Origin: an uncultured Actinomycetes bacterium
GTDB taxonomy: Bacteria; Actinomycetota; Thermoleophilia; Gaiellales; Gaiellaceae
Length of the DNA stretch: 64,000 nucleotides
Direction: 5' to 3'
Assembly: GCA_963716865.1 (NCBI GenBank)
Contig: CAVQUF010000002.1
Span: 86,316-150,315, forward strand
Shown here piece by piece: positions 6,932-48,401 of the stretch (position 1 is its first letter; each line of letters opens with the position of its first letter). The translations under genes were made by a program, and so were the position numbers. The notes under the pieces are model-generated. The model saw nothing but the letters and a program-made list of their open reading frames with translations. It searched no databases and was not told the origin of the DNA.

Positions 6932-6944
6932 TGCCAGGTAGCTA

Positions 6945-7073: not shown

Positions 7074-7086
7074 AAGTGCGGTCTGC

Positions 7087-8115: not shown

Positions 8116-8486
8116 AGCCTCTCCACCACGCGGAAGCGGATGGCGGAGATGAGCGTGTCCGGCTCGATCGTGCGCTCGAAGAACCGCTCGTGCGCCTCGT
8201 GCCACTCCTCCACCGACTCGAAGCCCTCACCCTCGTCCCGCGCGAACTGCAAGTCGACCTCGGACGCCGGGATCACGCGGACCTCCGTCACCTCGACGAT
8301 CGCCCTGGCGACGCCCTCCGCGTCCTCGACCACGAACCGGTCGCCGGCGTCGGGGGTGGGATCGTCCTCGAAGACTCCGTGGAGGCCCGCGGTGGCGGTC
8401 TTCTCGCCAGCGAGCACGGCCTCGACGAGCTGCTGCCGAAGCTCGGTTCCGGGGTAGCCGAGCCCGAACTCGGGCAGATCGCTCAG
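8112..8486 (-). CDS. ASCH (PUA-like) domain protein
   Basis: EGEGFESVEEWHEAHERFF and AVLAGEKTATAG are ASCH-like. The track ORF (8112..8417) lacks the usual N-terminus. The in-frame CTG at 8486 overlaps the asnB stop (CTGA) and restores LSDLPEFGLGYPGTELRQQLVEAVL. Confidence 0.55.
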   Translation of the reverse strand: MSDLPEFGLGYPGTELRQQLVEAVLAGEKTATAGLHGVFEDDPTPDAGDRFVVEDAEGVARAIVEVTEVRVIPASEVDLQFARDEGEGFESVEEWHEAHERFFERTIEPDTLISAIRFRVVERL

Positions 8487-10372
8487 TGGACGAGCGCCTC
8501 CAGGCGCGGTTCGCGCAGCGGCCCCGGCTCCCGCTCGACGTGGCGCTCGTGCCAGAGCGTGAACGAGAGCAGGCCCCAGAGCTGGCGCGAGAGATCCTCC
8601 TCGCCCGCGACGTGCCGGTCGAGCAGGCGCCCGACCGCCTCAGGCCGGAAGAACCCCTGTCTGCGCAGCGTCTCGGCCGAGAGCGTCTCGCGGGCGAACG
8701 GCTCCAGCTCGCCGCGCAGCCAGGCGGCTGCCGGGATCGAGAAGCCGCGCTTCTTGCCGCCGACGATCTCCTTCGGCAGGAGGGGCGCGACGGCCTTGCG
8801 GAGCAGCACCTTCTTGCGGAAGCCCCGCACGCGCTGTTTCGTCGGCAGCGCGAGCGCGAGGTTCGTCACCGCCGGGTCGAGGTAGGGCACGCGGGCCTCG
8901 AGCGAGTGCGCCATCGACGCGCGGTCGGTCTTCACCAGCAGGTCGTCGACGAGGTAGAGCCCGAGGTCGACGTCCTGGAGGCGCGCGAGCAGCTCGGCAT
9001 CCTCGGTCTCCACGAAGCGCGCGCGGTAAAGGTCGACCGGGTCGAAGCCGTGGTCACGGCCCGTGAGCTCCGCGCGGGCCTCGGGCGAGAAGATCTCCTT
9101 CCAGGCGTGATGGCGCTCGAGGGGCGGCAGGTGGGCCGCGCGGACGAAGCGCTTGGCCTTGTAGTCGAAGCTCGCCCGCGCGCTCGAGCTCGGCAGCCGC
9201 TCCACGACCGGCCGCGCCAGGCCGGCGGCCCAGCCGGCCCGGAGCGCGAGCAGGTCGGCGACATACGTGTAGTAGCCGCCGAAGAGCTCGTCGCCGCCCT
9301 CGCCGGAGAGCGCCACCTTCACGTCCTGCGCCGCCAGCTGAGAGACCAGGTAGGTCGGGAGCGCGGACGAGTCCGCGAACGGCTCGTCGAAGGCCTCGGC
9401 GAGCGCCGGCAGGAGCAGCGCGGCATCGGGCCGGAGGACCAGCTCACGATGGAGCGTCCCGTAGCGGTCGGCGACGAGCCGGGCGCCGGCCAGCTCGTCG
9501 AAGGAGCGCTCCTCGAAGCCGATCGAGAACGTGCGCACCGCCTCGGAGCTCTCCTCCGCCGCGAGCGCGGCCAGCGTGGCCGAGTCGACCCCGCCCGAGA
9601 GGAGGACGCCGACGGGGACGTCGGAGACGAGGTGAGCCCGAACGGAGTCGCGCAACCGCGCGCGGAGCTCCTCGATCAGCTCGGCCTCGTCATCGCCGCG
9701 CAGCGCTTCGGCGGCCGCCGGAGCCGGCCGCGCGTAGCGCTCGAGTCTTGTCTTTCCGTTCTCCCAGACCAGCAGATGGCCGGGCGGGAGCTTGCGCGCG
9801 TCGCGGAAGATCGTCAGCGGCGCGGGGATTGAGTTGAACGCGAGGAACGCCTCGAGCGCGTCGAGGTCGATCTCGCCGCGCGGGAGCGCGCGCAGCTCCG
9901 ACGCGAACTCGAGCGCGTCGCCGTTCGACCGGTAGTAGAGCGGCTTGATCCCGTACCGGTCGCGGGCGAGGACGAGGCGCCGCCGCGGCGCGTCCCAGAG
10001 CGCGACGGCGAACATCCCGCGAAGGCGACGCGCGAAGTCGAGCCCTTCCTGCTCGTAGAGGTGGACGAGCACCTCCGTGTCGCCGTGCGAGCGGAAGCCG
10101 TGGCCGGCGCGCTCGAGCTCGGCGCGCAGCTCGCGGTAGTTGTAGAGCTCGCCGTTCTGGACGACGTGGATCGTCGAGTCCTCGTTCGCGAGCGGCTGGT
10201 CGCCGGTCTCGAGGTCGATGATCGCGAGGCGGCGGGCGGCGAGGGCGACGCCTCCGTCTACGAACGAGCCGTCGCTGTCAGGCCCGCGGTGGACGAGCTT
10301 GGCGCTCATCCGCGCCAGCCGTTCGGGGTCGACGGGACCCGCCGAGGAGACGATCCCGCAGATCCCGCACAC
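8483..10372 (-). CDS. asnB: Asparagine synthase (glutamine-hydrolysing) / AsnB-type amidotransferase
   Basis: MCGICG Ntn-cysteine start and PP-loop LLSGGVDSA; 629 aa. Confidence 0.95.
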   Translation of the reverse strand: MCGICGIVSSAGPVDPERLARMSAKLVHRGPDSDGSFVDGGVALAARRLAIIDLETGDQPLANEDSTIHVVQNGELYNYRELRAELERAGHGFRSHGDTEVLVHLYEQEGLDFARRLRGMFAVALWDAPRRRLVLARDRYGIKPLYYRSNGDALEFASELRALPRGEIDLDALEAFLAFNSIPAPLTIFRDARKLPPGHLLVWENGKTRLERYARPAPAAAEALRGDDEAELIEELRARLRDSVRAHLVSDVPVGVLLSGGVDSATLAALAAEESSEAVRTFSIGFEERSFDELAGARLVADRYGTLHRELVLRPDAALLLPALAEAFDEPFADSSALPTYLVSQLAAQDVKVALSGEGGDELFGGYYTYVADLLALRAGWAAGLARPVVERLPSSSARASFDYKAKRFVRAAHLPPLERHHAWKEIFSPEARAELTGRDHGFDPVDLYRARFVETEDAELLARLQDVDLGLYLVDDLLVKTDRASMAHSLEARVPYLDPAVTNLALALPTKQRVRGFRKKVLLRKAVAPLLPKEIVGGKKRGFSIPAAAWLRGELEPFARETLSAETLRRQGFFRPEAVGRLLDRHVAGEEDLSRQLWGLLSFTLWHERHVEREPGPLREPRLEALVH

Positions 10373-10397
10373 GCGCCGGAGTGTAGTGCCCCGTCCG

Positions 10398-11108
10398 CTA
10401 GTCCCCGTGCCCGAAGAGCCCCCGCACCGATTGGGCGAAGACCCTGGCCGCGGTCGCGGTCAGCGTGCGCAGGTATAGCGGCACGGAGCGGTCGGCGATC
10501 CACTCGAGATCGTGGGCCAGCTTCTCGGCCATCGAGGTCTCGTAGCCGCGCCTCACCTGGGCGAACCCGGTCAGACCCGGGCGCACGACGAGACGCTGCC
10601 AGTAGGCCGGCAGCTCCTCCGCGAGCTGCTCGAAGAAACGGGGCCGGATCGGCCGCGGCCCGACGAAGCTCATGTCGCCTCTGAGGACGTTCCAGAGCTG
10701 GGGAAGCTCGTCGAGCTGCGTCGCGCGGAGACGGCGGCCGAGCCGCGTGGTCTCGGCGCGTGTCTTCTCGACGAGCTCTTCGCCGAGAAAGGAGCCGAGG
10801 CGCTCCTCGGCGCCGGGCTCGAGCGTGCGGAACTTCAGCATCTGGAAGATGCGCCCGTCCTTCCCGACCCGGCGGCCGCGGTAGAAGAGGGGCCTGCCGC
10901 TCGTCAGGAGGAGCGCGGCACCGATCACGAGCAGCAGCGGGACCGCGAGCAGCAGGAAGAGCCCGGAGAAGGCGACGTCGAGCAGCCGAAGCTCCAGATC
11001 GACGCGGCGCTTCGGCGAGCCGCTTCCGAGCCCCGCGAAGCGCTCGATGAAGGAATCGCTCGGTCCCGGCTGCGGCGAGGTTTCCGAGCCCGGCTGGGAG
11101 CTGGCCAC
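10398..11108 (-). CDS. Initiating sugar-phosphate transferase (bacterial sugar transferase family, PglC/WbaP C-terminal type), copy 1
   Basis: PLFYRGRRVGKDGRIFQMLKFRTL and DELPQLWNVLRGDMSFVGPRP. Confidence 0.9.
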   Translation of the reverse strand: MASSQPGSETSPQPGPSDSFIERFAGLGSGSPKRRVDLELRLLDVAFSGLFLLLAVPLLLVIGAALLLTSGRPLFYRGRRVGKDGRIFQMLKFRTLEPGAEERLGSFLGEELVEKTRAETTRLGRRLRATQLDELPQLWNVLRGDMSFVGPRPIRPRFFEQLAEELPAYWQRLVVRPGLTGFAQVRRGYETSMAEKLAHDLEWIADRSVPLYLRTLTATAARVFAQSVRGLFGHGD

Positions 11109-11260
11109 CCCGTGATGCTAGAGGGTCGAGGACACGGCGAGACGGCGGTCGGCCCCTTCGTCCTGTACTACGGTTCGCCCGGCCTCCTCCCCGAGGCGAG
11201 CGTATCGGGGAAATGCGCACGCGTGGGTAACGGAATCGTGCCGGAAGTGTGACTGAAGGC

Positions 11261-11275
11261 ATAATCAATCCTTAT
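11261..11275 (+). promoter_or_regulatory. Candidate LysR-type T-N11-A box (ATAATCAATCCTTAT) overlapping the LysR start codon
   Basis: ATAA-N7-TTAT dyad read directly; an AT-rich patch in the divergent 165-nt intergenic region. Confidence 0.3.
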
Positions 11276-12167
11276 GGACACGCGACAGCTCGCAGCGTTC
11301 TGCGCCGTGGTCGAGCGGAAGAGCTTCTCGCAGGCGGCCGAGCGGCTCGGGGTCACGCAGCCGGCGGTGAGCCTCCAGGTCCGCTCGCTCGAGAAGCGGC
11401 TTGGACGCAAGCTGCTCGATCGCTCGGGTCGCAGCGTCGAGCCGACCGAGGCGGGCCTCGCGCTCTACCGCGGCGCCCAGCGCCTGCTCGCCCTCGAAGG
11501 TCAGCTGCTCGAGGAGCTCGAGGCCGGCGAGGAGGGCGAGCTCGGCGGCACGCTCGAGGTCGGCGCGTCCACCGGCCCAGGTAGCACCGTCGTCCCGGTC
11601 CTGCTCTGCGAATTTCAGCGGCAGAACCCCGGTGTCGCGATCTCGCTCTCGATCTCGGACACGCAGACCGTCGTCGAGCGTGTGGCGGACCGCGAGCTCG
11701 AGCTCGGCGTCGTCGGCGCCGCCCGACGGCACCGCGGGGTCGTGTTCGAGCCGCTCTTCCGCGACGAGGTCGTGCTCGCATGCCCGCCGGACCACCGCTT
11801 CGCCGGCCGCACGGTCGGGCTCGACGAGCTGAGGGAGGAGCAGCTGATCGTGATGCAGGAGGGCGCCGGGGTCCGTCAGGTGATCGAGGACGAGCTCCGT
11901 CGCGCCGGCACGAGGCTGCGGGAGCTGGAGCCGCGGCTCGAGCTCGGCCTCCAGGAGTCGGCGCGATCGGCGGTCGTCGCCGGCTACGGGGTGACGTTCA
12001 TCTCACGCGCCGCGATCGAGGCCGATCTCTCGGCGGGCACGCTCGCCGCCGCGCGCGTGAAGGGGCTCGACCCGGCCCGTGAGATCTCGCTCGTCCGGTC
12101 GGCGGGGCGCTCGCCTACCCGTGCGGCGGAGGCCTTCCTGTCCTTCGCCAGGGAGCGGCTCGAGTGA
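11274..12167 (+). CDS. LysR-family transcriptional regulator
   Basis: N-terminal HTH FSQAAERLGVTQPAVSLQVRSLE; 297 aa. Confidence 0.9.
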   Translation: MDTRQLAAFCAVVERKSFSQAAERLGVTQPAVSLQVRSLEKRLGRKLLDRSGRSVEPTEAGLALYRGAQRLLALEGQLLEELEAGEEGELGGTLEVGASTGPGSTVVPVLLCEFQRQNPGVAISLSISDTQTVVERVADRELELGVVGAARRHRGVVFEPLFRDEVVLACPPDHRFAGRTVGLDELREEQLIVMQEGAGVRQVIEDELRRAGTRLRELEPRLELGLQESARSAVVAGYGVTFISRAAIEADLSAGTLAAARVKGLDPAREISLVRSAGRSPTRAAEAFLSFARERLE

Positions 12168-13126
12168 TCGTCCGCTGGGGGCTCGAGGAGCTCCCCGGCC
12201 TGCTCGCGGAAGCCGGGATCGAGCGCCCGTTCCTGATCGCGAGCGACCGCTGGGCGCGCCTCGACCTTCCCGCGGCCGGAAGATGGAACGAGGTTCCGTC
12301 CCACCGGATCGACGACGCGGCCGAGGCGAGCGACGGCTGTGACGGCCTCCTCGTGGTCGGCGGCGGCAGCGCGATCGACCTGACGAAGGCGATCTCGGCC
12401 GCGACCGGCCTCCCGTTCGTTTCGGTGCCGACCACGTACTCGGGCGCCGAGTGGACGACGTCGTTCGGGATCCGCGACCCGGGCCGGCTCATGAGGGGCC
12501 ACGGAAGCGGCGCCCACCCGGCCGGGATCGTCTACGAACCGAAGCTGACCCTCGACCTGCCACGGGGCGTGAGCGGCGGAACGGCAATGAACGCGCTCGC
12601 CCACTGCGCGGAGGCCCTCTACGTCGAGGGCCGCAACCCCGAGGGCGACGAGCATGCGATCGAGGGCGCGAGGCTGATCGGCGAGTCGCTCCCGTCCGTG
12701 CTCGAGGACGGCCACGACCTCGAGGCCCGAACGACGCTCCTGCGTGGGGCGATGCACGCGGGGGCCGCCTTCGGCTCGGCCGGTCTCGGGCTCGCGCATG
12801 CGATGGCGCAGGCGATCGGCGGCCGCTACGGGATCGCGCACGGAGCTGCGAACGCCCTCTGCCTGCCGCCGGCGCTGCGGTTCAACGAGTCGGTCGCCCG
12901 CGAGGAGATCGCGCGCTTCGCCGAGGCTCTCGGCACGGCCGATGCAGCGGCGCGCTGCGAGGAGCTCTCCCGCCTCTCGGGCTTCGAGCGCCTGCGCGAC
13001 CTCGGCGTCCCGGAGGACGAGCTCGACGAGGTGGCCGAGGCGGCCGCCGCCCGTCCGGGCGCGCTCGTCAACCCGCGCCGTGCGAGCCCGGCCGAGATCG
13101 CCGAGCTCCTGCGCAGCATCTGGTAG
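12164..13126 (+). CDS. Iron-containing alcohol dehydrogenase family protein (maleylacetate-reductase-like)
   Basis: VVGGGSAIDLTKAI and the histidine-rich C-terminal half (NALAHCAE, GLAHAMAQ). GTGA overlap with the LysR stop. Confidence 0.8.
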   Translation: MIVRWGLEELPGLLAEAGIERPFLIASDRWARLDLPAAGRWNEVPSHRIDDAAEASDGCDGLLVVGGGSAIDLTKAISAATGLPFVSVPTTYSGAEWTTSFGIRDPGRLMRGHGSGAHPAGIVYEPKLTLDLPRGVSGGTAMNALAHCAEALYVEGRNPEGDEHAIEGARLIGESLPSVLEDGHDLEARTTLLRGAMHAGAAFGSAGLGLAHAMAQAIGGRYGIAHGAANALCLPPALRFNESVAREEIARFAEALGTADAAARCEELSRLSGFERLRDLGVPEDELDEVAEAAAARPGALVNPRRASPAEIAELLRSIW

Positions 13127-13130
13127 CCGA

Positions 13131-13232
13131 GGCGTCGCTTGCGATGCCGGCCTCAGGACGTGCGGGCTCGGCCTGCGCGTCCGTCTGAAATGACCGGTCG
13201 AGCCGATGGCGCTGTTCCGAAACCGTCGCTAG
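13131..13232 (+). repeat. Repeat family A, copy 1 (double hairpin + invariant tail + third hairpin)
   Basis: GGCGTCGCTTGCGATGCC..GACGTGCGGGCTCGGCCTGCGCGTCCGTCTGAAATGACCGGTCGA, then CGATGG..CCGTCG..CTAG. Starts 5 nt after the stop at 13126. Confidence 0.8.
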
Positions 13233-14584: not shown

Positions 14585-15790
14585 GTGGCCGAGCGGCTCA
14601 TATTCGACGTGCTCGTCGTCGGGAGCGGGGCCTCAGGGCTCGCCGCCGCGGTGTCGGCCGAGACGACCGGCGCGCGCGTCGGTCTCGTCACCAAGGGAGC
14701 GTTGCAGTCCTGCAACTCGGCCAAGGCCCAGGGAGGCATCCAGGCGGCGTTCGGCGAGGACGACTCCCCGGAACAGCACGGCGAGGACGTCTGGCAGAGC
14801 TCCCACGAGACCGCCGACCGCCACCTCGTGGAGGTGCTGACCGGCGAGGCGCCGGGCGCGATCCACTGGCTCGAGGAACACGGGGTCGAGTTCACCAGGG
14901 AGAACGGCGGCTACCGGCTCGCCCGCTGCGGTGGCGCGAGCCGCAAGCGCCTGCTCCAGGTCGGCGACCGTACCGGCCACGCGATCACCACCGCCCTCCG
15001 CGACGCGTTCCTCGCCTCGGACGGCGAGGCCCTGCCCAACTGCCCGCTCGTCGCACTCGAGCCCGCCGGGAACGGCTGGCTCGCGACCTGCCGCCGGAAG
15101 AACGGAGAGGACGTCACGATCGACGCGGCCGCCGTCGTGCTCGCCGCCGGCGGGCGCTGCTACCGCGAGGCCGAGGAGCGCCGCGAGCTTTCGACCAACC
15201 ACCCCGGCGCGACCGGCGAGGTGACGCAGATCGCGCTCGACCTCGGCGCCGAGAGCCGCGACCTCGACGCGCTCCAGTACCACCCGAACGGCGGCGCCTG
15301 GCCTCCGACGATGCAGGGCTACTCGATCCCCGAGACCACCCGCGCCTACGGAGCGACGCTCCTCAACGCCGACGGGGACGAGTTCACCGACCCGCTCGGG
15401 CCGCGCGACACGGTCTCGCAGGCGATCTTCGACGAGGTGGAGGGCGGGCGCGGAGTCGAGACGCCCGACGGCCGCCCCGCGGTCCTGCTCGACACGACCC
15501 GGATCGCCCAGGGCGACGCCGAGATCTCGCTTCCCTACATGCTGCGCCGTTACCGTTCCGCCGGAATCGACCCGCTCGGGCAGGCGATCCTGACCTACCC
15601 CGTCCTCCACTACCAGAACGGCGGCCTCGTCATCGACGAGCGCTCGGAGACGACCCTCGAGGGCCTGTTCGCGTGCGGCGAGATCGCCGGCGGCACACAC
15701 GGGCGCAACCGGATGATGGGGAACAGCCTGCTCGAGTGCACCGTCTTCGGACGCCGGGCAGGCGCAGCCGCCGCGGAGAAGGCGGCGTGA
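14585..15790 (+). CDS. FAD-binding oxidoreductase, fumarate reductase/succinate dehydrogenase/L-aspartate oxidase flavoprotein family, short form (no C-terminal helical domain)
   Basis: DVLVVGSGASGLAAA, AKAQGGI, LQYHPNG, GLFACGEIAGGTHGRNRMMGNSLLECTVFGRRAG; 401 aa. Confidence 0.8.
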   Translation: MAERLIFDVLVVGSGASGLAAAVSAETTGARVGLVTKGALQSCNSAKAQGGIQAAFGEDDSPEQHGEDVWQSSHETADRHLVEVLTGEAPGAIHWLEEHGVEFTRENGGYRLARCGGASRKRLLQVGDRTGHAITTALRDAFLASDGEALPNCPLVALEPAGNGWLATCRRKNGEDVTIDAAAVVLAAGGRCYREAEERRELSTNHPGATGEVTQIALDLGAESRDLDALQYHPNGGAWPPTMQGYSIPETTRAYGATLLNADGDEFTDPLGPRDTVSQAIFDEVEGGRGVETPDGRPAVLLDTTRIAQGDAEISLPYMLRRYRSAGIDPLGQAILTYPVLHYQNGGLVIDERSETTLEGLFACGEIAGGTHGRNRMMGNSLLECTVFGRRAGAAAAEKAA

Positions 15791-15861
15791 GACGCCGCTT
15801 GCGGTGTCGACATCAGGCCGGACGGGCTTTGCTCGCCCGGCCGTCTGAAATGACCGGTCGA
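15791..15861 (+). repeat. Repeat family A, copy 2
   Basis: GACGCCGCTTGCGGTGTC..GGCCGGACGGGCTTTGCTCGCCCGGCCGTCTGAAATGACCGGTCGA, immediately after the stop at 15790. Confidence 0.8.
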
Positions 15862-15887
15862 TGCGCCTGTCGTCAGGAGAAGGCCGC

Positions 15888-16784
15888 ATGAGTCTGGTAG
15901 TGACCGACCTGCGCCAGGCCGTCGAGGACGCGGCTGCCTACCTCTACGTCTGGGCGCTGAAGGACATCCCGCAGGACCTGCGCGACGCGCTCGTGGCGGC
16001 CAGGGACCGCGAAACCTCGACGCCGGGCAAGCGCGTACTGGAGACGATCGTCCGCAACGTCGAGATCGCGGACGACCGCGAGAACCTCGTCTGCCAGGAC
16101 ACGGGGATCGCGGTCTACATGTGCCGTGTCGGAGAAGGCTTCCCGCTCCACCCGGTCCGGATCTACGAGGCGCTCAAGGCCGGCACCGAGCGCGCGACGA
16201 TCGAGCACCCGCTTCGCTCGAACGCCGTCCACACGATCACCCGGGAGAACACCGGGCCGAACACGGGCTACCGGCTCCCGATCGTGCACTGGGAGTTCGT
16301 GCCCGACTGGGACGGCCTCGACGTCAAGTGCGTGCCGAAGGGCTCGGGCTCGGAGAACATGAGCTTCCTGAAGATGTGCGTCCCCGCCGACGGCGTGAAG
16401 GGGATCAAGCAGTTCGTGCTCGAGTCGATCGTCGACGCGGGCGGCAAGCCGTGCCCGCCCGGGATCGTCGGCGTCGGCATCGGCGGCTCGGCCGACTACG
16501 CGATGTACCTCGCCAAGGAGGCGATCGCGCGCCCCATCGGAACCCGCAACCCCGACCCGCACGTGGCGCAGCTCGAGGACGAGCTCTACGGGCTGCTGAA
16601 CGAGACCGGCATCGGGCCGATGGGGCTCGGCGGCGACGTCACCGTCCTCAACTGCCACATAGAGCACGCCGACACGCACATGACCCTGAACCCCGTGGCC
16701 GTCAACTACCAGTGCTGGGCGGCGCGCCGCGCGAGCGCGCATATCGCCGCCGACGGCACGATCGACTACGACCGGGAGGCCTGA
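15888..16784 (+). CDS. Fe-S type hydro-lyase, tartrate/fumarate subfamily, alpha subunit (class I fumarase / TtdA-like)
   Basis: VCQDTGIAVYM, VPKGSGSENMS, GVGIGGSAD. ATG 15888 is preceded by AGGAGAAGG; the track ORF starts at 15861, inside the repeat. Confidence 0.85.
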   Translation: MSLVVTDLRQAVEDAAAYLYVWALKDIPQDLRDALVAARDRETSTPGKRVLETIVRNVEIADDRENLVCQDTGIAVYMCRVGEGFPLHPVRIYEALKAGTERATIEHPLRSNAVHTITRENTGPNTGYRLPIVHWEFVPDWDGLDVKCVPKGSGSENMSFLKMCVPADGVKGIKQFVLESIVDAGGKPCPPGIVGVGIGGSADYAMYLAKEAIARPIGTRNPDPHVAQLEDELYGLLNETGIGPMGLGGDVTVLNCHIEHADTHMTLNPVAVNYQCWAARRASAHIAADGTIDYDREA

Positions 16785-16790
16785 GGTGCT

Positions 16791-16889
16791 TAGTAACAGT
16801 CTGTTACTAGCGGTGTCCCGGGCCTCCAGCGGCCAAGACCCACGGAGATGCGGGAGCTTTCAGGCTCCAAGTAACAGACTGTTACTTGG
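16791..16889. repeat. Repeat family C, doublet 2: TAGTAACAGTCTGTTACTA (16791..16809) and CCAAGTAACAGACTGTTACTTGG (16867..16889), 57-nt spacer
   Basis: Read directly. Lies between the hydro-lyase alpha stop (16784) and the beta start (16904). The second palindrome abuts the GGAGGGGGA ribosome-binding site. Confidence 0.8.
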
Positions 16890-16903
16890 AGGGGGAGACC
16901 TCG

Positions 16904-17488
16904 ATGGCTAGGCACGAAGTGACCTTCCCGGTTACCGACGAGGCCGAGATCCTCAAGCTGCGCGCCGGCGACGAGGTCGTCGTCCAGGGTCACATCATCG
17001 GGATCCGCGACCGCACGCAGATCCGGATCTTCGACGAGGGCGTCGAGCCGCCGATGGACCTCCGCGGCGCGTTCCTGCTCCATACCGCTCCGGGCGTGCG
17101 CAAGGTCGGCGACAAGTACGAGCCTGTCTGCATCGGCACGACCACGAGCGCGCGGATGGTGCGCTTCACCGAGCCGCTCGGTGCGCAGTACGGCGTGCGC
17201 GCGATCTGCGGCAAGGGCGGTTTCCCCGACGAGGCGATCGAGCCCATGCAACGGCACGGGATGGTCTACTTCGCGATCGTCGGCGGGGCCGCGGCACTCG
17301 AGACGACGCAGATCGAGGAGATCGAGGAGGTCGCCTGGGAGGAGCTCATGCCCGAGTGCCTCTGGAAGTTCCGCGTGAAGGACTTCGGTCCGCTCACGGT
17401 CGGCATCGACGCGCACGGCAACTCGCTCTACCACGACGTGCAGGAGGCCGCACACAAGAAGCTGGAGGAGCTCTATGCCAAGCTTTGA
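16904..17488 (+). CDS. Fe-S type hydro-lyase, tartrate/fumarate subfamily, beta subunit (FumA C-terminal / TtdB-like)
   Basis: GHIIGIRDRTQIRIF, IGTTTSARM, ICGKGG. The ATG at 16904 follows a GGAGGGGGA SD; the track ORF starts at TTG 16886. Confidence 0.85.
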   Translation: MARHEVTFPVTDEAEILKLRAGDEVVVQGHIIGIRDRTQIRIFDEGVEPPMDLRGAFLLHTAPGVRKVGDKYEPVCIGTTTSARMVRFTEPLGAQYGVRAICGKGGFPDEAIEPMQRHGMVYFAIVGGAAALETTQIEEIEEVAWEELMPECLWKFRVKDFGPLTVGIDAHGNSLYHDVQEAAHKKLEELYAKL

Positions 17489-18263
17489 CGGATTCCTCGA
17501 CCTGCCCCCTCGCCCCGGGAAGCCGCGCACCGAGGGCCTGACCCACGTCATCGACAAGGGCCTCAACCTGCGCGAGATCGAGGGTCTCTTCGACACCGCC
17601 GGCCAGTACGTGGACATCGTCAAGCTCGGCTGGGGCACCTCGTACGTCACCAACAACCTCGAGAAGAAGATCGCGCTCTACCGGTCGTTCGAGACGCCCG
17701 TCGTCTGCGGCGGCACGCTCTTCGAGGTCGTCTACGCGCGCGGCAAGCTCGACGAGTTCCGGCGCTGGTTGGTCGACCAGCGCTTCTCGCACGTCGAGAT
17801 CTCGGACGGCACGCTCGAGATCCCGCGCGAGCGCAAGCTCGAGCTGATCGCCGACTTCGCGAGCGACTTCACCGTCCTCTCGGAGGTCGGCTCGAAGGAC
17901 GAGGAGATCGTGTTTGCCCCGTACCAGTGGGTCGAGTGGATCAAGGAGGAGCTCGAGGCGGGTGCCTGGAAGGTGATCACGGAGGGGCGCGAGGGCGGCA
18001 CCGCGGGTATCTACCGGCCGACCGGAGAGATGCGCACGGGGCTCGTGGACGAGATCGTCCACGAGGTCGAGCTCGGGGACCTGATCTTCGAGGCGCCGAC
18101 GAAATCGAGCCAGGCCTGGTTCGTCAAGCAGTTCGGTCCCAACGTGAACCTCGGGAACATCCCGCCCGAGGAGGTCATCCCGCTCGAGACGCTGCGCCTC
18201 GGCCTGCGCGGCGACACGCTGAAGGAGGTCTTGCTCGATGGCGAGCGCGCCCCCTCTGCCTGA
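17475..18263 (+). CDS. comA: (2R)-phospho-3-sulfolactate synthase (ComA family)
   Basis: LTHVIDKGL, VDIVKLGWGTSYV, FSHVEISDGTL; 262 aa. 14-nt overlap with the upstream gene. Confidence 0.85.
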   Translation: MPSFDGFLDLPPRPGKPRTEGLTHVIDKGLNLREIEGLFDTAGQYVDIVKLGWGTSYVTNNLEKKIALYRSFETPVVCGGTLFEVVYARGKLDEFRRWLVDQRFSHVEISDGTLEIPRERKLELIADFASDFTVLSEVGSKDEEIVFAPYQWVEWIKEELEAGAWKVITEGREGGTAGIYRPTGEMRTGLVDEIVHEVELGDLIFEAPTKSSQAWFVKQFGPNVNLGNIPPEEVIPLETLRLGLRGDTLKEVLLDGERAPSA

Positions 18264-18939
18264 GCTCGACTTCGAGTCGATGAGCGCGGAGGAGGTCCTC
18301 CGCTGGGGGCACGCCGAGTTCGGCGACCGCCTCTGCCTGACGTGCTCCTGGCAGAAGCAGTCGTCGGTGCTCGTGCACATGGTGGCCGAGCTCGGCCTCG
18401 ACCTTCCGGTGATCGAGCTCGACACGCACCTGTTCTTCCGCGAGAGCTACGAGACGCGCGACCGGCTCGTCGAGCGCTACGGCATCCGCCTGCTTCCGCC
18501 GCCCGAGCTGATCACCGTCGCCGAGCAGCACCGGCAGGAGGGCCCGAACCTCTGGGAGACCGACCCCGACCGCTGCTGCCACATCCGCAAGGTCGAGCCG
18601 CTCCTGAAGGCGCTCCAGCCCTACGACGCCTGGATCTCCGGGATCCGGCGCGACCAGGCGCCGAGCCGGTCTGCGACGCCGAAGGTGCAGTGGTCGGAGC
18701 GCTACGACGTCTGGAAGGTCCACCCGCTGGCCGACTGGGACGAGAAGCGCGTCTGGGCCTACATCACCGTGAACGAGATTCCGTACAACCCGCTCCACGA
18801 CGTCGGCTTCCGCTCGATCGGGTGCATTCCGTGCACGCGTCCGACGAGTCCTGAGGAAGAGGAGCGCGCAGGCCGCTGGGCCGGCTCCGACAAGCTCGAA
18901 TGTGGCATCCACCTCGACACTCCCGTAGGAGGGACATGA
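18238..18939 (+). CDS. cysH: Adenylyl-/phosphoadenylyl-sulfate reductase (CysH), Fe-S-cluster type
   Basis: SGIRRDQ and ECGIH catalytic motif, plus the CC (DRCCHIRK) and CxxC (GCIPC) cysteines that bind the 4Fe-4S cluster in APS-type enzymes. Confidence 0.9.
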   Translation: MASAPPLPELDFESMSAEEVLRWGHAEFGDRLCLTCSWQKQSSVLVHMVAELGLDLPVIELDTHLFFRESYETRDRLVERYGIRLLPPPELITVAEQHRQEGPNLWETDPDRCCHIRKVEPLLKALQPYDAWISGIRRDQAPSRSATPKVQWSERYDVWKVHPLADWDEKRVWAYITVNEIPYNPLHDVGFRSIGCIPCTRPTSPEEEERAGRWAGSDKLECGIHLDTPVGGT

Positions 18940-19535
18940 CCGATCACATCCACGCCGCCGAGCACCCCGAGTCCGATCGGACTCGGTCCGGCGGCTTCAC
19001 GCTCTGGTTCACCGGGCTCTCCGGTGCCGGCAAGACCACGATCGCGCACATCGTCGGGCCCGAGCTCGACCGGCGCGGCCTCGTCGTCGAGTACCTCGAC
19101 GGCGACACGGTGCGGACGCACCTCTCGAAGGGGCTCGGCTTCTCGAAGGAGGACCGCGACACGCACATCGAGCGCGTCGGCTGGGTCGCGTCGCGCCTGA
19201 CCCGCCAGGGCGGCGCCGTCATCACCGCGGCGATCTCGCCGTACGAGGAGACTCGAAGCAAGGCCAGGGCGATGATCGAGGACGTCGGCACCTTCGTCGA
19301 GGTCTACGTGAAGGCGTCGGTCGAGGAGTGCGCGACGCGCGACGTCAAGGGCCTGTACGAGAAGGCCTTCCGGGGCGAGATCAAGGAGTTCACCGGCGTG
19401 AGCGACCCCTACGAGGAGCCGTCGAGCCCGGAGCTGGTGGTCGACACGGAGCTGCTCAGCGCGGAGGAGAGCGCCGCGCTCGTCGTGGCGAGGCTCGAGG
19501 AGCTCGGACTCATTCGGGCCGAGGTGCCGGCGTGA
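18936..19535 (+). CDS. cysC: Adenylyl-sulfate kinase
   Basis: P-loop FTGLSGAGKTTIA. ATGA overlap with the cysH stop; the track ORF starts at 18900. Confidence 0.9.
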   Translation: MTDHIHAAEHPESDRTRSGGFTLWFTGLSGAGKTTIAHIVGPELDRRGLVVEYLDGDTVRTHLSKGLGFSKEDRDTHIERVGWVASRLTRQGGAVITAAISPYEETRSKARAMIEDVGTFVEVYVKASVEECATRDVKGLYEKAFRGEIKEFTGVSDPYEEPSSPELVVDTELLSAEESAALVVARLEELGLIRAEVPA

Positions 19536-20677
19536 CGCTGCTCGACGCACAGCCTCTGATCGCGCCGCACGGCGGGAGGCTCGTCGACCGGACCGGGCCG
19601 CGCCCGGACGCGGTCAAGCGGCTCGAGCAGATCCCGCTCACCTCGCGCGAGCTCTCCGACCTGGACATGCTCGCGAGCGGCGCGCTCTCGCCGCTGGAGG
19701 GCTTCATGGGCCGCCACGACTACGAGCGCGTGGTCGAGGAGATGCGGCTCGAGCGCGGGCTGCCGTGGGCGCTGCCGGTCTGCCTCGCGGTCGACCTGCC
19801 GCCGCAGGGTGACGAGGTCGCGCTGACGGACCAGAGCGGCCGCGCTCTCGCCGTGCTCGAGGTGGACGAGGTCTACGAGTACGACCGGGAACGCGAGGCG
19901 GAGCGCTGCTTCCGCACGACCGACGAGGCGCATCCGGGGGTTGCGCGCCTCTACGCGCAGAAGCCGTTCTACCTCGGAGGGCGCGTGACGGTCTTCGAGC
20001 GGCTCGAGGCTCCGTTCCCGGAGCTGGCGCTCGACCCGATCGAGACCCGGCGCGTGTTCGCCGAGCGGAGCTGGCGCCGCGTGGTCGGGTTCCAGACCCG
20101 CAACCCGATCCACCGCGCGCACGAGTACCTGACGAAGGGCGCGCTCGAGACCGTGGACGGGCTCCTGATCCACCCGCTCGTCGGCGAGACGAAGTCGGAC
20201 GACGTGCCGGTTGCGACGCGTGTCGAGTGCTACCGCGTCCTGGTGGACAACTACTACCCCGCCGACCGCGTGGTCGTCTCCGCGTTCCCCGCGGCGATGC
20301 GCTACGCAGGCCCGCGCGAGGCGATCTGGCACGCGATCTGCCGCAAGAACTACGGCTGCTCGCACTTCATCGTCGGCCGCGACCACGCGGGCGTGGGCGA
20401 CTACTACGGGACCTACGACGCGCAGGAGATCTTCGACGAGTTCGAGCCGCACGAGCTCGACATCGAGCCGATGTTCTTCGAGCACGCGTTCTACTGCCGC
20501 GTCTGCGGGCAGATGGCGACGCCGAAGACCTGCCCGCACGGCGGCGACGACCACGTCTTCCTCTCGGGCACGAAGGTGCGTGAGCTGCTCGCGGCCGGCG
20601 AGCTGCCGCCCGAGGAGTTCTCACGGCCCGAGGTGGCGGAGGTGCTGATCGAGAGCTACCGCGGCGTGCGCTCCTAG
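19532..20677 (+). CDS. sat: Sulfate adenylyltransferase (ATP sulfurylase)
   Basis: GFQTRNPIHRAHE and VGRDHAGVG motifs. GTGA overlap with the cysC stop; the upstream part of track ORF 19328.. overlaps cysC out of frame. Confidence 0.9.
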   Translation: MTLLDAQPLIAPHGGRLVDRTGPRPDAVKRLEQIPLTSRELSDLDMLASGALSPLEGFMGRHDYERVVEEMRLERGLPWALPVCLAVDLPPQGDEVALTDQSGRALAVLEVDEVYEYDREREAERCFRTTDEAHPGVARLYAQKPFYLGGRVTVFERLEAPFPELALDPIETRRVFAERSWRRVVGFQTRNPIHRAHEYLTKGALETVDGLLIHPLVGETKSDDVPVATRVECYRVLVDNYYPADRVVVSAFPAAMRYAGPREAIWHAICRKNYGCSHFIVGRDHAGVGDYYGTYDAQEIFDEFEPHELDIEPMFFEHAFYCRVCGQMATPKTCPHGGDDHVFLSGTKVRELLAAGELPPEEFSRPEVAEVLIESYRGVRS

Positions 20678-20683
20678 CCTCAT

Positions 20684-20846
20684 GGAGGGCTTGACGAAAC
20701 ATCGGCTGAGCCGCCGGGCCGCGCTGCTCGCCCCGATGCTGCGTCCTCAGTCGCGCACGTACCTTCCCGGTACGCACGCTCCCTGCGTCCTTGCGTCGGA
20801 ACGAGCATCGCACCCCGGCGACGAGCGACGTTCCGCCAAGCCCTCC
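20684..20846 (+). promoter_or_regulatory. Candidate structured leader: 10-nt inverted repeat GGAGGGCTTG (20684..20693) / CAAGCCCTCC (20837..20846) closing the whole sat-tauE spacer
   Basis: Perfect complementarity read directly. The 3' arm ends 2 nt before the GTG at 20849. Internal hairpin CGTACC-TTCCC-GGTACG. Confidence 0.35.
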
Positions 20847-20848
20847 CG

Positions 20849-21748
20849 GTGACCTGGCAGTTCACCCTCAGCGGCTTCCTGATCGGCGCCCTCGTCGGGA
20901 TGACCGGGATGGGCGGGGGCTCGCTACTGACGCCGATCCTGGTCATCTTCTTCGGCTTCAAGCCGACGCTCGCGGTCGGCACGGACATCCTCCACGGCGC
21001 GATCTTCAAGAGCTTCGGCGCGGTCCGGCACCGGCGTCTGGGCACGGTCCACGCGCGCCTGACCTTCTGGATGTTCCTGGGCTCGGGGCCTATGTCGCTG
21101 CTGGGCGTCGCCGTGGCGACCTGGCTCTCGCACCACTCGGGGAGCGCCGAGTCGATCGAGGCCTACGCCGTCGGCGTGGCTCTCGTGATCGGCGGGGCCG
21201 GTCTCGTGGCGAAGACGTTCGTCAAGGTCGGCGTCCAGCCCGACGATGCGCCGTTCCTGCTCGAGCGGCGTGACCGTCTGATCGCGTTCACGCTCGGGGC
21301 GGTCTGCGGCTTCGTCGTCGGCCTGACCTCGGTCGGCAGCGGCACGTTCTTCGGGCTCGTGATGGTGATGGTCTTCCCGCTCACGCTGCCGAAGATCGTC
21401 GGCACAGACATCTTCCACGCCGCCGCGCTGTTGTGGGTGGCCGGGTTCGGGCACCTCGTCGCGGGGAATGTCGACCTGCGGACGATGGCCTGGCTCCTGA
21501 CCGGATCGATCCCGGGCGTGCTGCTCACGAGCCACTTCACGCTGAAGCTTCCCGACCGGGCCCTGCGCCTCGGCCTCGCCTGCGTCCTGATGCTGAGCGG
21601 GATCAAGCTGATCGACTTCGAGGGCGCGACCTACGTGATCGCCTTCGGCGCGGCCGTCGCGTTCCTCGGTTTCGCGTTCTGGGCCCTCGTCGCCTGGATC
21701 GGCCGCAGGTCTCATCCTGAGATCGCGTCTAGAACGGGAAGCGGATAG
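20849..21748 (+). CDS. TauE/SafE-family anion (sulfite/organosulfonate) exporter
   Basis: GMTGMGGGSLLTPILV near the N-terminus and a duplicated 4-TM architecture; 299 aa. Confidence 0.85.
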   Translation: MTWQFTLSGFLIGALVGMTGMGGGSLLTPILVIFFGFKPTLAVGTDILHGAIFKSFGAVRHRRLGTVHARLTFWMFLGSGPMSLLGVAVATWLSHHSGSAESIEAYAVGVALVIGGAGLVAKTFVKVGVQPDDAPFLLERRDRLIAFTLGAVCGFVVGLTSVGSGTFFGLVMVMVFPLTLPKIVGTDIFHAAALLWVAGFGHLVAGNVDLRTMAWLLTGSIPGVLLTSHFTLKLPDRALRLGLACVLMLSGIKLIDFEGATYVIAFGAAVAFLGFAFWALVAWIGRRSHPEIASRTGSG

Positions 21749-21762
21749 CCAAACGAGACTGA

Positions 21763-21861
21763 GGCGCCGCTTGCGGCGCCGTCCTCAGGACGCGCGGGCT
21801 TACCCGCGCGTCCGTCTGAAATGACCGGTCGAACCGGTGGACGTCTGGGAAACCGGACTAG
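21763..21861 (+). repeat. Repeat family A, copy 3 (best-formed copy)
   Basis: GGCGCCGCTTGCGGCGCC GTCCTCAG GACGCGCGGG-CTTA-CCCGCGCGTC CGTCTGAAATGACCGGTCGA, then CCGGT..ACCGG..CTAG. Confidence 0.85.
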
Positions 21862-28272: not shown

Positions 28273-29852
28273 AACTCGCGCTCGTCGCGGCGGCGGCGGC
28301 GGCGGTCGTGGTCGGGGTTCCTGGCGCAGGGGCGCAGGGGAAGCCGGCTCTCCGGCTCGTGGGCTTCGGCCCGGCCGTGATCAGCCCGAACGGCAACGGG
28401 ATCAACGACGCCGTGCACCTGCGCGTGCGCGCGCCGGCAGGCTCGGTGCTCGGGCTGCGCGCGTACTTCTGGGGCGGGCGGCTCCACGGCTGGCACCGGA
28501 TCCGGACCGGCGTCACCGAGACCGCCGCCGCGAGCGGCACGACGACGCTGACCTGGGACGGGACCAACACCCTCGCCGGCCGCGAGGTCGGCGACGGAAC
28601 CTACTTAGTAACAGTCTGTTACAAGGATCCGGGGCACAGGCTGCCGCCGGTGATCCCGCCGGCGCAGCAGCGGCCGGGGGCCGCCGAGGAGACGGTCACG
28701 AACCCGCCGTGGCACTTCTCCGGGTGCCTGAAGGAGCCGCGCGCCCTGCGGGTCGAGCGGCTCGCGGCATACGTGGACTCGACCTCGAGCTTCGGGCCGG
28801 GACAGCGCCCTCCGCTCGTGGTCTCGGCCGACGGCGGCCGGGCGCGCGTGCGGCTGGAGCAGGACTGCTCGGGCCGGGACTTCCCCGCCGGGCGGCTGCC
28901 GCGCGGGCTCCGCTCGGGCCTCTACCACTACATCGCGACCGATCCTGCCGGCGACGAGTTCGAGGCGCCGCTCGTCGTCCGCAACGGTCGCTTTCCGGTC
29001 GACGACCCGCCTGCGCACACGGCGCTGCTCGTCTGGCCGTACCTGACCTGGCGCGCGTACAGCGCCTACGACGCCGACCTGAACGGGATCCCCGACACGT
29101 GGTACCAGTGGTGGCGGCAGCGGCGCGTCTCGTTCGTCGGGCCGCTGCTGCAGCGCGGGGAAGAGGACGACCACGAGGCCGCGGCGCCGTTCGAGCGCTG
29201 GGCCTGCGCGCGCAACGTGCGCGTCCAGAGCGTCACGGACGTCGAGCTCCGGCACATCCCGTTGTCGGCCCTTCGACGCTACGCCGCGGTCGTCTACCCG
29301 GGGCACAGCGAGTACTACCAGCCCGGGACCTACAACCTGCTCCGCCGCTACCGCAACGGCGGCGGGCACCTCTTCATCCTGCAGGCGAACCCGTTCTACC
29401 GGCCGGTGCGGATCGACCGGCGGCACAACGCGATGATCCTGCTCGACTTCGACGCGCGCAGCGCCCGCCGCTCCGACTTCGCGCTCGCGGGGGTCGGCTA
29501 CGACGGCTGCTGCTTCCCGCGCTCGCGGGCCGCGCCGTACGTCGCGGCGACCGGCCGTGACTACGCGCGCGTGCGCTGGCTCTTCCGCGGCACGGGGATC
29601 GGCCCTGGTGACAGCTTCGGCTACGCAGGCTCCGAGAGCGACAGGATCGACCCGGCGTGGACGCCGCGAGACCACGTGGTCGCGGCCGAGGCGATCATGC
29701 CCGGCAAGTTCGGCGTGATCAACGCCGCGCTCGTCTGGTCGCGGGCCGGCCGGGGAGAGGTCCTCTCGACCGGCAACTACGACTTCCTGCGCATGGGCAG
29801 GGGCCTGACCTGGAAGCTGCTCGACAACGTGTGGCGCAAGTTCGTCGGCTAG
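28269..29852 (+). CDS. Secreted protein: signal peptide + FlgD-Ig-like domain + domain resembling the N,N-dimethylformamidase beta-subunit-like (DUF6605-type) fold
   Basis: VKLALVAAAAAAVVVGVPGAGAQG signal, ISPNGNGINDAV, then LLVWPYLTWRAYSAYD, YPGHSEYY, GGGHLFILQANPFY. GTGA overlap upstream. Confidence 0.55.
   Translation: MKLALVAAAAAAVVVGVPGAGAQGKPALRLVGFGPAVISPNGNGINDAVHLRVRAPAGSVLGLRAYFWGGRLHGWHRIRTGVTETAAASGTTTLTWDGTNTLAGREVGDGTYLVTVCYKDPGHRLPPVIPPAQQRPGAAEETVTNPPWHFSGCLKEPRALRVERLAAYVDSTSSFGPGQRPPLVVSADGGRARVRLEQDCSGRDFPAGRLPRGLRSGLYHYIATDPAGDEFEAPLVVRNGRFPVDDPPAHTALLVWPYLTWRAYSAYDADLNGIPDTWYQWWRQRRVSFVGPLLQRGEEDDHEAAAPFERWACARNVRVQSVTDVELRHIPLSALRRYAAVVYPGHSEYYQPGTYNLLRRYRNGGGHLFILQANPFYRPVRIDRRHNAMILLDFDARSARRSDFALAGVGYDGCCFPRSRAAPYVAATGRDYARVRWLFRGTGIGPGDSFGYAGSESDRIDPAWTPRDHVVAAEAIMPGKFGVINAALVWSRAGRGEVLSTGNYDFLRMGRGLTWKLLDNVWRKFVG
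28605..28624. repeat. Repeat family C, solo copy inside a CDS (TTAGTAACAGTCTGTTACAA)
   Basis: Read directly. Encodes LVTVCY with codons TTA GTA ACA GTC TGT TAC, which are visibly atypical for this GC-rich gene. Confidence 0.75.
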
Positions 29853-48363: not shown

Positions 48364-48401
48364 CACGTCCACGCACGGCCCGGCCCAGGCTGCCCCAAAA
48401 A

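Follow-up and report, generated by a model that had tools for sequence, protein, structure and literature searches.

A stretch of 64,000 nucleotides from an uncultured actinomycete (assembly GCA_963716865.1, contig CAVQUF010000002.1, positions 86,316 to 150,315; hereafter the window) carries an operon in which ComA, the (2R)-phospho-3-sulfolactate synthase, is coupled to a short flavin adenine dinucleotide (FAD) flavoprotein of the FrdA/SdhA/NadB type. The best explanation is probably an organosulfonate biosynthesis operon that is controlled by a LysR-family regulator and specific to Thermoleophilia. We consider it very likely that the operon serves a sulfonate biosynthesis initiated by ComA and including a dedicated flavoprotein step; a branch through sulfoacrylate to 3-sulfopropionate is our tentative leading model for the window. 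The window has a G+C content of 71% and its ComA shares 86-96% identity with proteins annotated in Gaiellaceae metagenome-assembled genomes (MAGs); the host is a member of the Gaiellaceae (Thermoleophilia, Actinomycetota). Open reading frames (ORFs) were called by G+C content at the third codon position (GC3), about 60 ORFs across the window were scanned with Pfam, and families were assigned with Pfam profiles and with NCBIfam models that have curated cut-offs.

Eight genes lie on the + strand between 14585 and 21748, as an earlier reading of this DNA (the first-pass annotation) had claimed, and the gene identities given there were right by Pfam and NCBIfam, including the profile matches for ComA, Fumerase/Fumerase_C and FAD_binding_2 that it had proposed as a check. 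They encode the 401-aa flavoprotein (14585-15790; FAD_binding_2, 1.4e-64), the alpha subunit of a class-I [4Fe-4S] hydro-lyase (FumA, 15861-16784, with a start at 15888 also possible; Fumerase, 2.7e-91), its beta subunit (FumB, 16904-17488, with an alternative TTG start at 16886; Fumerase_C, 2.1e-29), ComA (17475-18263; PF02679, 2.8e-88), a thioredoxin-dependent reductase of adenosine 5'-phosphosulfate (APS) or 3'-phosphoadenosine 5'-phosphosulfate (PAPS) of the Fe-S type (CysH, 18238-18939; PAPS_reduct, 1.2e-47), the APS kinase CysC (18936-19535; APS_kinase, 4.2e-61), the ATP sulfurylase Sat (19532-20677; PUA_2 and ATP-sulfurylase) and an anion permease of the TauE/SafE (TSUP) family (20849-21748; PF01925, 4.7e-38). 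The overlaps described earlier are exact on the sequence, with 14 nt shared by FumB and ComA, 26 nt by ComA and CysH, ATGA by CysH and CysC and GTGA by CysC and Sat. The remaining junctions are gaps: 70 nt containing a repeated hairpin element between the flavoprotein and FumA, about 120 nt containing an insert that resembles a miniature inverted-repeat transposable element (MITE) between FumA and FumB, and 171 nt between Sat and TauE. The genes of the eight-gene unit stood, but two genes that are part of the conserved unit had been overlooked, the LysR-family regulator (11274-12167, + strand; Pfam HTH_1 and LysR_substrate) and a short, 320-aa iron-type alcohol/aldehyde dehydrogenase (Fe-ADH, 12164-13126, + strand; Pfam ADH_Fe_C / Fe-ADH). 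These two overlap by 4 nt, and a small ORF and a methyltransferase on the opposite strand lie between Fe-ADH and the operon.

The linkage of the operon genes is not chance. A scan for ComA of one genome per GTDB species gave 435 confirmed matches, and the best 80, all from Gaiellaceae/Gaiellales MAGs, were used as related loci; the presence of each gene was assessed by tblastn with the window proteins, and only loci with enough flank were counted. The first-pass annotation had named absence of the linkage from related genomes as an argument against its reading, and across these 80 Gaiellaceae species the linkage proved to be strongly conserved. The flavoprotein was present in every eligible locus (67/67), followed by FumA (69/70), FumB (72/74), TauE (60/65), CysH (70/78) and CysC (64/72), while Sat was present in 35 of 66 loci and CysD/CysN-like genes occupy the same place in the loci without it. 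The junction from FumB to ComA has a median of -14 nt and is at or below zero in 97% of loci, and that from ComA to CysH has a median of -26 nt. Further upstream, LysR is present in 52 Gaiellaceae loci and Fe-ADH in 44, with a gap of -4 nt between them in 90% of the latter. The general map in Gaiellaceae, with arrowheads for the direction of the genes, reads [AsnB< Bac_transf<] LysR> FeADH> ... flavoprotein> FumA> FumB> ComA> [CysH CysC Sat or CysDN] TauE> FlgD_ig-protein> Wzy_C-protein> PIG-L-like. Eight Gaiellaceae loci have the order flavoprotein-FumA-FumB-ComA-TauE, where TauE comes directly after ComA and CysH/Sat are not in the operon, and in one Gaiellales locus (L043) the flavoprotein directly precedes ComA without a hydro-lyase.

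Searched exhaustively with a profile, 1.84 billion representative proteins yielded full-length relatives of the flavoprotein at 75% identity (Gaiellales), at 57% (P0123) and then at 45% or less. The group at 57% is from the Miltoncostaeaceae and includes the cultured Miltoncostaea marina. In M. marina and two MAGs the order is LysR> flavoprotein> ComA> Sat, with a 4-nt overlap of flavoprotein and ComA, and a metagenome scan yielded 14 more Miltoncostaeaceae loci; ComA comes directly after the flavoprotein in all of them (17/17), five being without Sat. The four proteins common to the window and the M. marina operon are 54-62% identical and are therefore orthologues; at 54%, the window LysR corresponds to the one that directly precedes flavoprotein-ComA in M. 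marina. The invariant unit at the level of the class is LysR, flavoprotein and ComA, usually with Sat. No hydro-lyase, CysH, CysC, TauE or Fe-ADH was found at the Miltoncostaeaceae loci, and these genes are therefore additions of the Gaiellaceae, which inserted the two-subunit class-I Fe-S hydro-lyase between flavoprotein and ComA.

Flavoproteins linked to ComA form a clade restricted to Thermoleophilia. A link between flavoprotein and ComA outside this class was considered and rejected, as neither ComA nor sulfur genes were found near the homologues at 45% identity in Clostridia-type genomes (L085, L086) or at eleven metagenome loci with 32-41% identical flavoproteins. The wider family of short flavoproteins, with its 32-45% homologues without ComA, offers no functional clue.

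Two further observations concern the Miltoncostaeaceae loci. Wherever enough downstream sequence is available, a protein of about 660 aa with a weak GH42-like match and an apparent N-terminal signal peptide is encoded 3' of flavoprotein-ComA(-Sat) (13231-15240 in L082, 13265-15247 in L083, 13256-15229 in L084, and 11 further loci); no homologue was found in the window or the Gaiellaceae loci. At 11221-13200 of L083, ComA and Sat are called as a 659-aa fusion where relatives have a 4-nt overlap, which may be an assembly frameshift and was not used as evidence.

ComA and the supply of sulfite

ComA matches PF02679 with 295.9 bits (cut-off 25.2) over positions 2-243 of the 243 in the profile. It is nearer to the bacterial YitD type than to archaeal ComA, with 219.7 bits and about 51% identity over 245 aa to Bacillus subtilis YitD (1U83) as compared to 162 bits and about 40% identity to Methanocaldococcus jannaschii ComA (1QWG), and it falls below the archaeal equivalog TIGR03849 (246 bits, cut-off 280), a model built for archaeal ComA. 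A lack of conserved catalytic residues in ComA had been listed by the first-pass annotation as a possible objection; in the alignment the blocks VEISDG, EVGSK, EGRExG, FEAP and ETLRxGLRxDT are common to 1U83, 1QWG and the window protein. The predicted reaction of ComA is the addition of sulfite to phosphoenolpyruvate to give (2R)-phosphosulfolactate. Across the 80 Gaiellaceae species its identity is 81-96%.

The supply line from sulfate through sulfite to phosphosulfolactate that had been proposed for Sat, CysC, CysH and ComA is supported both by the 51% identity to YitD and by the curated NCBIfam cut-offs, which were passed by Sat (NF003166, 530.8 bits against 387), CysC (TIGR00455, 209.8 against 138.7) and CysH (NF002537, 251.1 against 154). 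The CysH translation contains the CC...CxxC Fe-S signature and ECGIH, which makes it an APS-reductase-type enzyme, and CysC may therefore also serve PAPS-dependent sulfation. A PF13469 sulfotransferase is encoded beside TauE/CysC, about 1-5 kb downstream of ComA, in 12 related Gaiellaceae loci (L017, L029, L040, L045, L046, L048, L054, L060, L067, L071, L074 and L080), and none is encoded in the window. From these neighbours, the APS kinase may feed PAPS-dependent sulfation besides the production of sulfite.

Both described routes to coenzyme M had been reported as absent from the window, and this is what the Pfam scan of the window ORFs found: there is no ComB, ComC, ComDE or Lyase_1/XcbC-type protein, nor a class-II fumarase or a sulfite reductase. 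ComB/ComC/ComDE, XcbC/XcbD (Lyase_1), XcbE (a pyridoxal phosphate, PLP, enzyme) and XcbA were likewise not found among the gene clusters common to at least two of the 80 related loci.

The flavoprotein, the hydro-lyase and accessory proteins

The flavoprotein consists of the FAD-binding and capping domains only and is without the C-terminal helical domain. Its AlphaFold2 model (pLDDT 92.7) was matched by Foldseek to Escherichia coli FrdA with a TMq of 0.91, covering about 400 of the 577 FrdA residues (FAD and capping domains only), and the protein ends at about residue 403 of the 540 in NadB. It misses every NCBIfam equivalog cut-off for NadB, Frd, Sdh and Tfr, scoring 241 bits against the NadB model TIGR00551 (cut-off 452.75). 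The residues corresponding to NadB H244, R290, H351 and R386 and their FrdA equivalents are kept in the motifs QYHPN, GPRD, LHYQNGG and GRNRM, and these His/Arg/His/Arg columns are invariant in the alignments A1 and A3. The two His and two Arg are those that bind and protonate fumarate.

Other positions have changed. Glu121 of NadB binds the amino group of the substrate, and NadB mutated at this residue no longer oxidises aspartate; in the flavoprotein it is replaced by Cys ('ARCGGAS' vs 'TREGGHS' in E. coli NadB), and the resulting RCGG motif is limited to the Thermoleophilia orthologues. The active-site-loop Thr (FrdA T244 / NadB T259), which binds the distal carboxylate, is replaced by Pro ('IPETTR' vs 'LVTEGVR' in Sdh and 'LLTEALR' in NadB), and the position of the His that carries covalent FAD is Asn (SCNSAKAQGG vs KAHTVMAEGG). 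No Fer2/Fer4 gene for an Fe-S partner was found in the operon. The possibility raised before, that the flavoprotein is an ordinary L-aspartate oxidase, is contradicted by the Cys at position 121, the missing C-terminal domain and the missed NadB/Frd/Sdh/Tfr cut-offs, and by these features the protein is neither an ordinary NadB nor a subunit of complex II. It still has the residues needed for redox chemistry at C2-C3 of a substrate that carries two anionic groups. The retained His/His/Arg/Arg set together with the lost Glu121 and loop Thr fits a C=C/C-C redox enzyme with an altered distal anionic group.

For the hydro-lyase the two subunits give different answers to the earlier question of whether it is a plain fumarase. 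FumA passes the fumarate hydratase equivalog NF004885 (310 bits, cut-off 276) and is about 50% identical to the M. jannaschii fumarase alpha subunit (7XKY_A), with the three Cys ligands and CQDTG kept and with VCQDTG, GKPCPP and QCWA all retained in the alignment, which speaks for a fumarase. FumB, in contrast, fails every equivalog and passes only the generic TIGR00723; it reaches 154.7 bits against 269 for NF004708 (57% of the cut-off) and 149.7 against 264 for the TtdB model NF006082, and is about 40% identical to the M. jannaschii beta subunit (7XKY_B). The distal-carboxylate residues of FumB (the Arg of RD, the Thr-Thr/Arg of TTSARM and the Lys of GKGG) are kept in comparison with 7XKY_B and with the Leishmania major fumarate hydratase 5L2R, and the single change near the active-site residues is IGPTT to IGTTT. 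Judged by its sequence alone, this hydro-lyase could be either a fumarase or a sulfolactate dehydratase.

For the regulator, the nearest NCBIfam model is the selenium-metabolism-associated LysR, with 246.8 bits against a cut-off of 250. Fe-ADH is far below all NCBIfam equivalog cut-offs, the nearest being 4-hydroxybutyrate dehydrogenase, ErcA-like and lactaldehyde reductase. TauE matches PF01925 with 131.6 bits (cut-off 32.6), and the label 'exporter' that it had received is unsafe, because the TSUP family contains sulfite/sulfonate exporters as well as the Corynebacterium glutamicum sulfate importer CysZ and its function is not predictable from sequence (PMC5840216). The permease could thus import rather than export.

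Proposed pathway and competing explanations

In the pathway that we propose, homology assigns to Sat, CysC and the Fe-S-type CysH the conversion of sulfate to APS, possibly to PAPS, and to sulfite, and to ComA the addition of the sulfite at C3 of phosphoenolpyruvate to form (2R)-phospho-3-sulfolactate. Comparative genomics assigns the step after ComA to the flavoprotein. In the window, loss of the phosphate would give (2R)-sulfolactate, which has the L-malate configuration, the hydro-lyase would dehydrate this to sulfoacrylate, and the flavoprotein would reduce the C=C bond to yield 3-sulfopropionate. Hydro-lyase and flavoprotein would then each perform their canonical chemistry on the sulfonate isostere of malate/fumarate, which needs only a swap of the distal carboxylate for a sulfonate. 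The divergent parts of the two enzymes are the binders of this distal group, namely FumB, at 57% of its equivalog cut-off, and the loop Thr of the flavoprotein, and this we count in favour of the 3-sulfopropionate model. In bacteria, phosphosulfolactate has been proven to yield sulfoacrylate (PMC9457059). The permease would either import sulfate/sulfite or export the product, which may end up as an anionic group on the envelope glycan specified by the flanking genes.

Several points weigh against this model. The chain from sulfolactate through sulfoacrylate to 3-sulfopropionate, already put forward in the first-pass annotation, is plausible for the window, but the hydro-lyase is missing from the Miltoncostaeaceae and L043. 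As these have flavoprotein and ComA without a hydro-lyase, a dehydratase followed by a reductase is therefore not the whole logic of the conserved core, and any sulfoacrylate formed there would need another source, either an unlinked enzyme or the flavoprotein. Nor is the operon 'self-contained', as had been claimed, since neither a phosphosulfolactate phosphatase or phosphate-lyase nor an electron donor for the reductase was found among the window ORFs with Pfam. In the literature searched, 3-sulfopropionate was not found as a natural biosynthetic end product. All known fumarase active-site residues are kept in the hydro-lyase and no sequence feature proves a sulfonate substrate. The flavoprotein has Gln at the FrdA-Glu49/SdhA-Gln50 position, which we take to be typical of the oxidising enzymes SdhA and NadB.

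The last two of these points also count for a different role of the flavoprotein, as a dehydrogenase or oxidase that would turn the product of ComA into sulfopyruvate and thereby replace ComB and ComC. This could proceed by C2-C3 desaturation of phosphosulfolactate to 3-sulfo-phosphoenolpyruvate followed by phosphate loss, or by a NadB-like oxidation of (R)-sulfolactate, and oxidation of malate to enol-oxaloacetate is a known activity of succinate dehydrogenase. The hydro-lyase, which resembles a true fumarase in that FumA passes the equivalog, would supply fumarate as electron acceptor, as used by NadB, or hydrate the enol phosphate and free the phosphate, and the sulfopyruvate would feed cysteate, taurine or C2 sulfonates. 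The strength of this explanation lies in the two-gene core, which has no phosphatase, dehydratase or reductant; a stand-alone oxidising flavoprotein needs no partner, so that the core is explained without unlinked enzymes and is fitted at least as well as by the 3-sulfopropionate model. The known archaeal pathway from ComA moreover has sulfopyruvate as its hub, and a group-II PLP decarboxylase is found among the adjacent glycan genes in one Miltoncostaeaceae locus (L084). However, enzymes of the FrdA family are not known to use a 2-phospho-ester as substrate, a dedicated fumarase just to supply an acceptor would be odd in an aerobe with a tricarboxylic acid (TCA) cycle, FumB is unusually divergent for a housekeeping fumarase, and ComDE, aminotransferase and decarboxylase genes are not consistently linked at the related loci. 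We regard the oxidative role as the main competitor of the 3-sulfopropionate model and somewhat less probable than it. The kept fumarase residues, the FumA equivalog and the 50% identity to the M. jannaschii enzyme could also mean that the hydro-lyase is a housekeeping fumarase, next to a flavoprotein that is a soluble fumarate reductase or an aspartate-oxidase-like enzyme of central metabolism. Sat, CysC, CysH and ComA would then by themselves make phosphosulfolactate and sulfolactate as in Bacillus spores, in line with a ComA closest to the sulfolactate-type YitD of Bacillus and with the lack of a class-II fumarase in the 64-kb window. Such a mere juxtaposition has little probability given the coupling of flavoprotein and ComA at 67/67 and 17/17 loci in two orders, with the 4-nt overlap in Miltoncostaeaceae, and the position of the hydro-lyase between these two genes, with FumB overlapping ComA in 97% of loci. 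The flavoprotein is also without Glu121, the catalytic-loop Thr, the C-terminal domain, an Fe-S partner and a nadA/nadC context, and a sulfur-type LysR over a housekeeping TCA enzyme would be unusual.

Two explanations reassign the sulfur chemistry itself. The operon could be a scavenging system under sulfur-starvation control, in which TSUP imports a C3 sulfonate, 3-sulfopropionate is converted through sulfoacrylate to sulfolactate, and ComA working in reverse frees sulfite that joins the sulfate-derived sulfite for cysteine synthesis. LysR regulators often control sulfur acquisition, all parts of the operon converge on sulfite, the family name TSUP stands for toluene-sulfonate uptake permease with an unpredictable direction of transport in the family, and a stand-alone flavoprotein suits the oxidative direction. 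But a reverse ComA needs phosphosulfolactate and a sulfolactate kinase is absent, the known desulfonation of sulfolactate is by SuyAB or CuyA and not by ComA, the Miltoncostaeaceae loci are without permease and hydratase, and no sulfite reductase is linked among the window ORFs; we give this explanation very little weight. Finally, the flavoprotein could be an APS reductase, as AprA belongs to the same flavoprotein superfamily and the minimal flavoprotein-ComA-Sat operon is without CysH, so that Sat, flavoprotein and ComA would form the full line from sulfate through sulfite to phosphosulfolactate in Miltoncostaeaceae. AprA structures were missing both from the sequence matches at E<=1e-10 and from the 50 best Foldseek matches, lists in which FrdA, SdhA and NadB dominate; CysH is found in the same operon at 70/78 Gaiellaceae loci, five Miltoncostaeaceae-type loci have flavoprotein-ComA without Sat, and there is no AprB-like partner. 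This last candidate was rejected as highly improbable, on the missing AprA matches and the presence of CysH.

Known sulfonate systems and the envelope-glycan surroundings

The archaeal coenzyme M pathway (ComA, ComB, ComC, ComDE) and the sulfolactate pathway of Bacillus spores (YitD/YitC) have their first step in common with the operon described here, a phosphosulfolactate synthase fed by sulfite. The operon differs from both in having no ComB phosphatase, ComC dehydrogenase or ComDE decarboxylase, either in the window or at any of about 100 related loci, but an invariably coupled flavoprotein instead, to which the Gaiellaceae add the Fe-S hydro-lyase. It also contains the sulfate-activation genes. 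The XcbA-E system of Xanthobacter autotrophicus is similar in that ComA (XcbB) is followed by C2-C3 chemistry on phosphosulfolactate, with sulfoacrylate proven in Xcb, and in that a 'fumarase-named' enzyme acts on a sulfonate, as is proposed here (PMC9457059). XcbC/XcbD are, however, of the aspartase/fumarase superfamily (class II, Lyase_1), whereas the hydro-lyase here is a class-I [4Fe-4S] enzyme of unrelated fold, and the operon is without XcbD, XcbE (PLP), XcbA ([2Fe-2S]), a thiolation step and the context of alkene/epoxide metabolism. In the misaugamycin-B genes misNOPQ an actinomycete ComA homologue is the predicted, though not demonstrated, source of the 2-sulfoacetyl N-acyl group (PMC9136965). 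The likeness here lies in a ComA-derived sulfonated short acyl group as the isostere of a dicarboxylic one (sulfoacetyl vs malonyl), a precedent for a sulfonated acyl decoration; the differences are that our operon has no acyl carrier protein or coenzyme A ligase, has other partner enzymes and lies in an envelope-glycan context.

The individual enzymes have known counterparts as well. The hydro-lyase has the Cys ligands, CQDTG, RD, TTSARM and GKGG in common with the class-I two-subunit fumarate hydratase/L-tartrate dehydratase (7XKY), but it is translationally coupled inside a LysR-controlled sulfite/ComA operon and its FumB fails every equivalog. The flavoprotein has the FAD-binding and capping fold and the His/Arg/His/Arg residues in common with NadB and FrdA/SdhA/TfrA, but it has neither an Fe-S or membrane partner nor nadA/nadC genes nearby. 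Only ComA is common to the operon and the archaeal coenzyme M, Bacillus sulfolactate, Xcb and misaugamycin systems, and none of these described sulfonate systems uses a class-I Fe-S hydro-lyase or an FrdA-type flavoprotein; the entry reaction is known, and the novelty lies in the enzymes that follow it, in the regulation and in the lineage. A description of the operon was not found in the literature on sulfoacrylate, 3-sulfopropionate, phosphosulfolactate, Gaiella sulfur metabolism or sulfonated glycan substituents.

Products initiated by ComA have so far been coenzyme M (by two routes) and spore sulfolactate, with a further one proposed for a single antibiotic side chain, and here the operon is conserved across a lineage. 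It is possible, though doubtful, that Thermoleophilia have a third phosphosulfolactate route, in which the flavoprotein (with the hydro-lyase in Gaiellaceae) acts on C3 sulfonates, the product is a phosphorus-free anionic glycan substituent and the lineage is a primary source of carbon-bonded sulfur in soil. If so, the product would be 3-sulfopropionate or derived from sulfopyruvate/cysteate, the enzymes would be the first sulfonate-specific members of the class-I Fe-S hydro-lyases and the FrdA/NadB-type flavoproteins, and the route would be an example of a pathway that does without ComB and ComC. Gaiellaceae are among the commonest uncultured soil Actinobacteria, and much of the soil sulfur is carbon-bonded sulfonate with poorly defined biological sources; a constitutive sulfonate pathway in Gaiellaceae would bear directly on these sources. 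Cultured relatives exist (Gaiella occulta and Miltoncostaea marina) and the core consists of two enzymes only.

The placement of the operon inside a glycan locus, as described in the first-pass annotation, was confirmed, with glycan genes around the operon that are conserved as neighbours, but the functional link proposed along with it received no direct support. The glycan genes of the window include DegT, a PglF-like dehydratase, DUF354, AsnB, two Bac_transf, two Wzy_C, a flippase, PIG-L and a formyltransferase, together with several glycosyltransferases, ATP-grasp ligases and AsnA. NAGPA, DegT, DUF354 and PglF-like genes are found 5-10 kb upstream in both orders (in the window and Gaiellaceae as well as in Miltoncostaeaceae), and the genes for formyltransferase and PIG-L, which lie 3' of TauE in the window, occur at just 10 of the 80 related loci. 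By analogy, from the synteny in two orders, the sulfotransferase neighbours and the misaugamycin precedent, the sulfonate product may be a substituent of the envelope glycan. Tandem PQQ-like/BamB-like beta-propeller proteins are encoded at 57028-58440 and 58437-59690 of the window, and in 22 Gaiellaceae loci homologues of these (cluster c436) are encoded near the Wzy_C-like gene that lies 3' of the operon. Next to TauE, 18 loci encode a membrane protein with DUF4395.

The public gene calls of the window contig (L001) split an intact 629-aa AsnB-type amidotransferase ORF (8483-10372, - strand) into two genes, and they give two hypothetical genes on the minus strand where GC3 and Pfam identify Bac_transf (10398-11108, - strand) and LysR (11274-12167, + strand). 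Automatic annotation is not reliable in this part of the high-GC contig (window positions 8483-12167).

Two types of repeated element were also seen. An intergenic element of about 75 nt is present in four copies on the + strand (13128-13201, 15788-15861, 21759-21832 and 48399-48472), the first three just 3' of the Fe-ADH, flavoprotein and TauE stop codons and the fourth preceding the second Wzy_C gene. It has two G+C-rich hairpins with compensatory changes between copies and the invariant tail CCGTCTGAAATGACCGGTCGA, and exact copies of this tail are limited to the window contig and 3 of 85 other fetched loci, all close relatives (L004, L005 and L010). Rfam at the gathering threshold gave no match to this element or anywhere else in the window. 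It could be a repetitive extragenic palindromic (REP)-like element, a terminator/attenuator or a small RNA. MITE-like inserts with the palindromic terminus GTAACAGNCTGTTAC are found at 16785-16903, in the spacer between FumA and FumB, and at 6938-7080, with a lone terminus at 28608-28622. The predicted folds of the inserts are very stable (-54.8 kcal/mol, z -3.6; -74.5 kcal/mol, z -7.4). In related genomes FumA and FumB directly adjoin or overlap, with a median gap of -1 nt, and here the MITE-like insert fills the gap between them.

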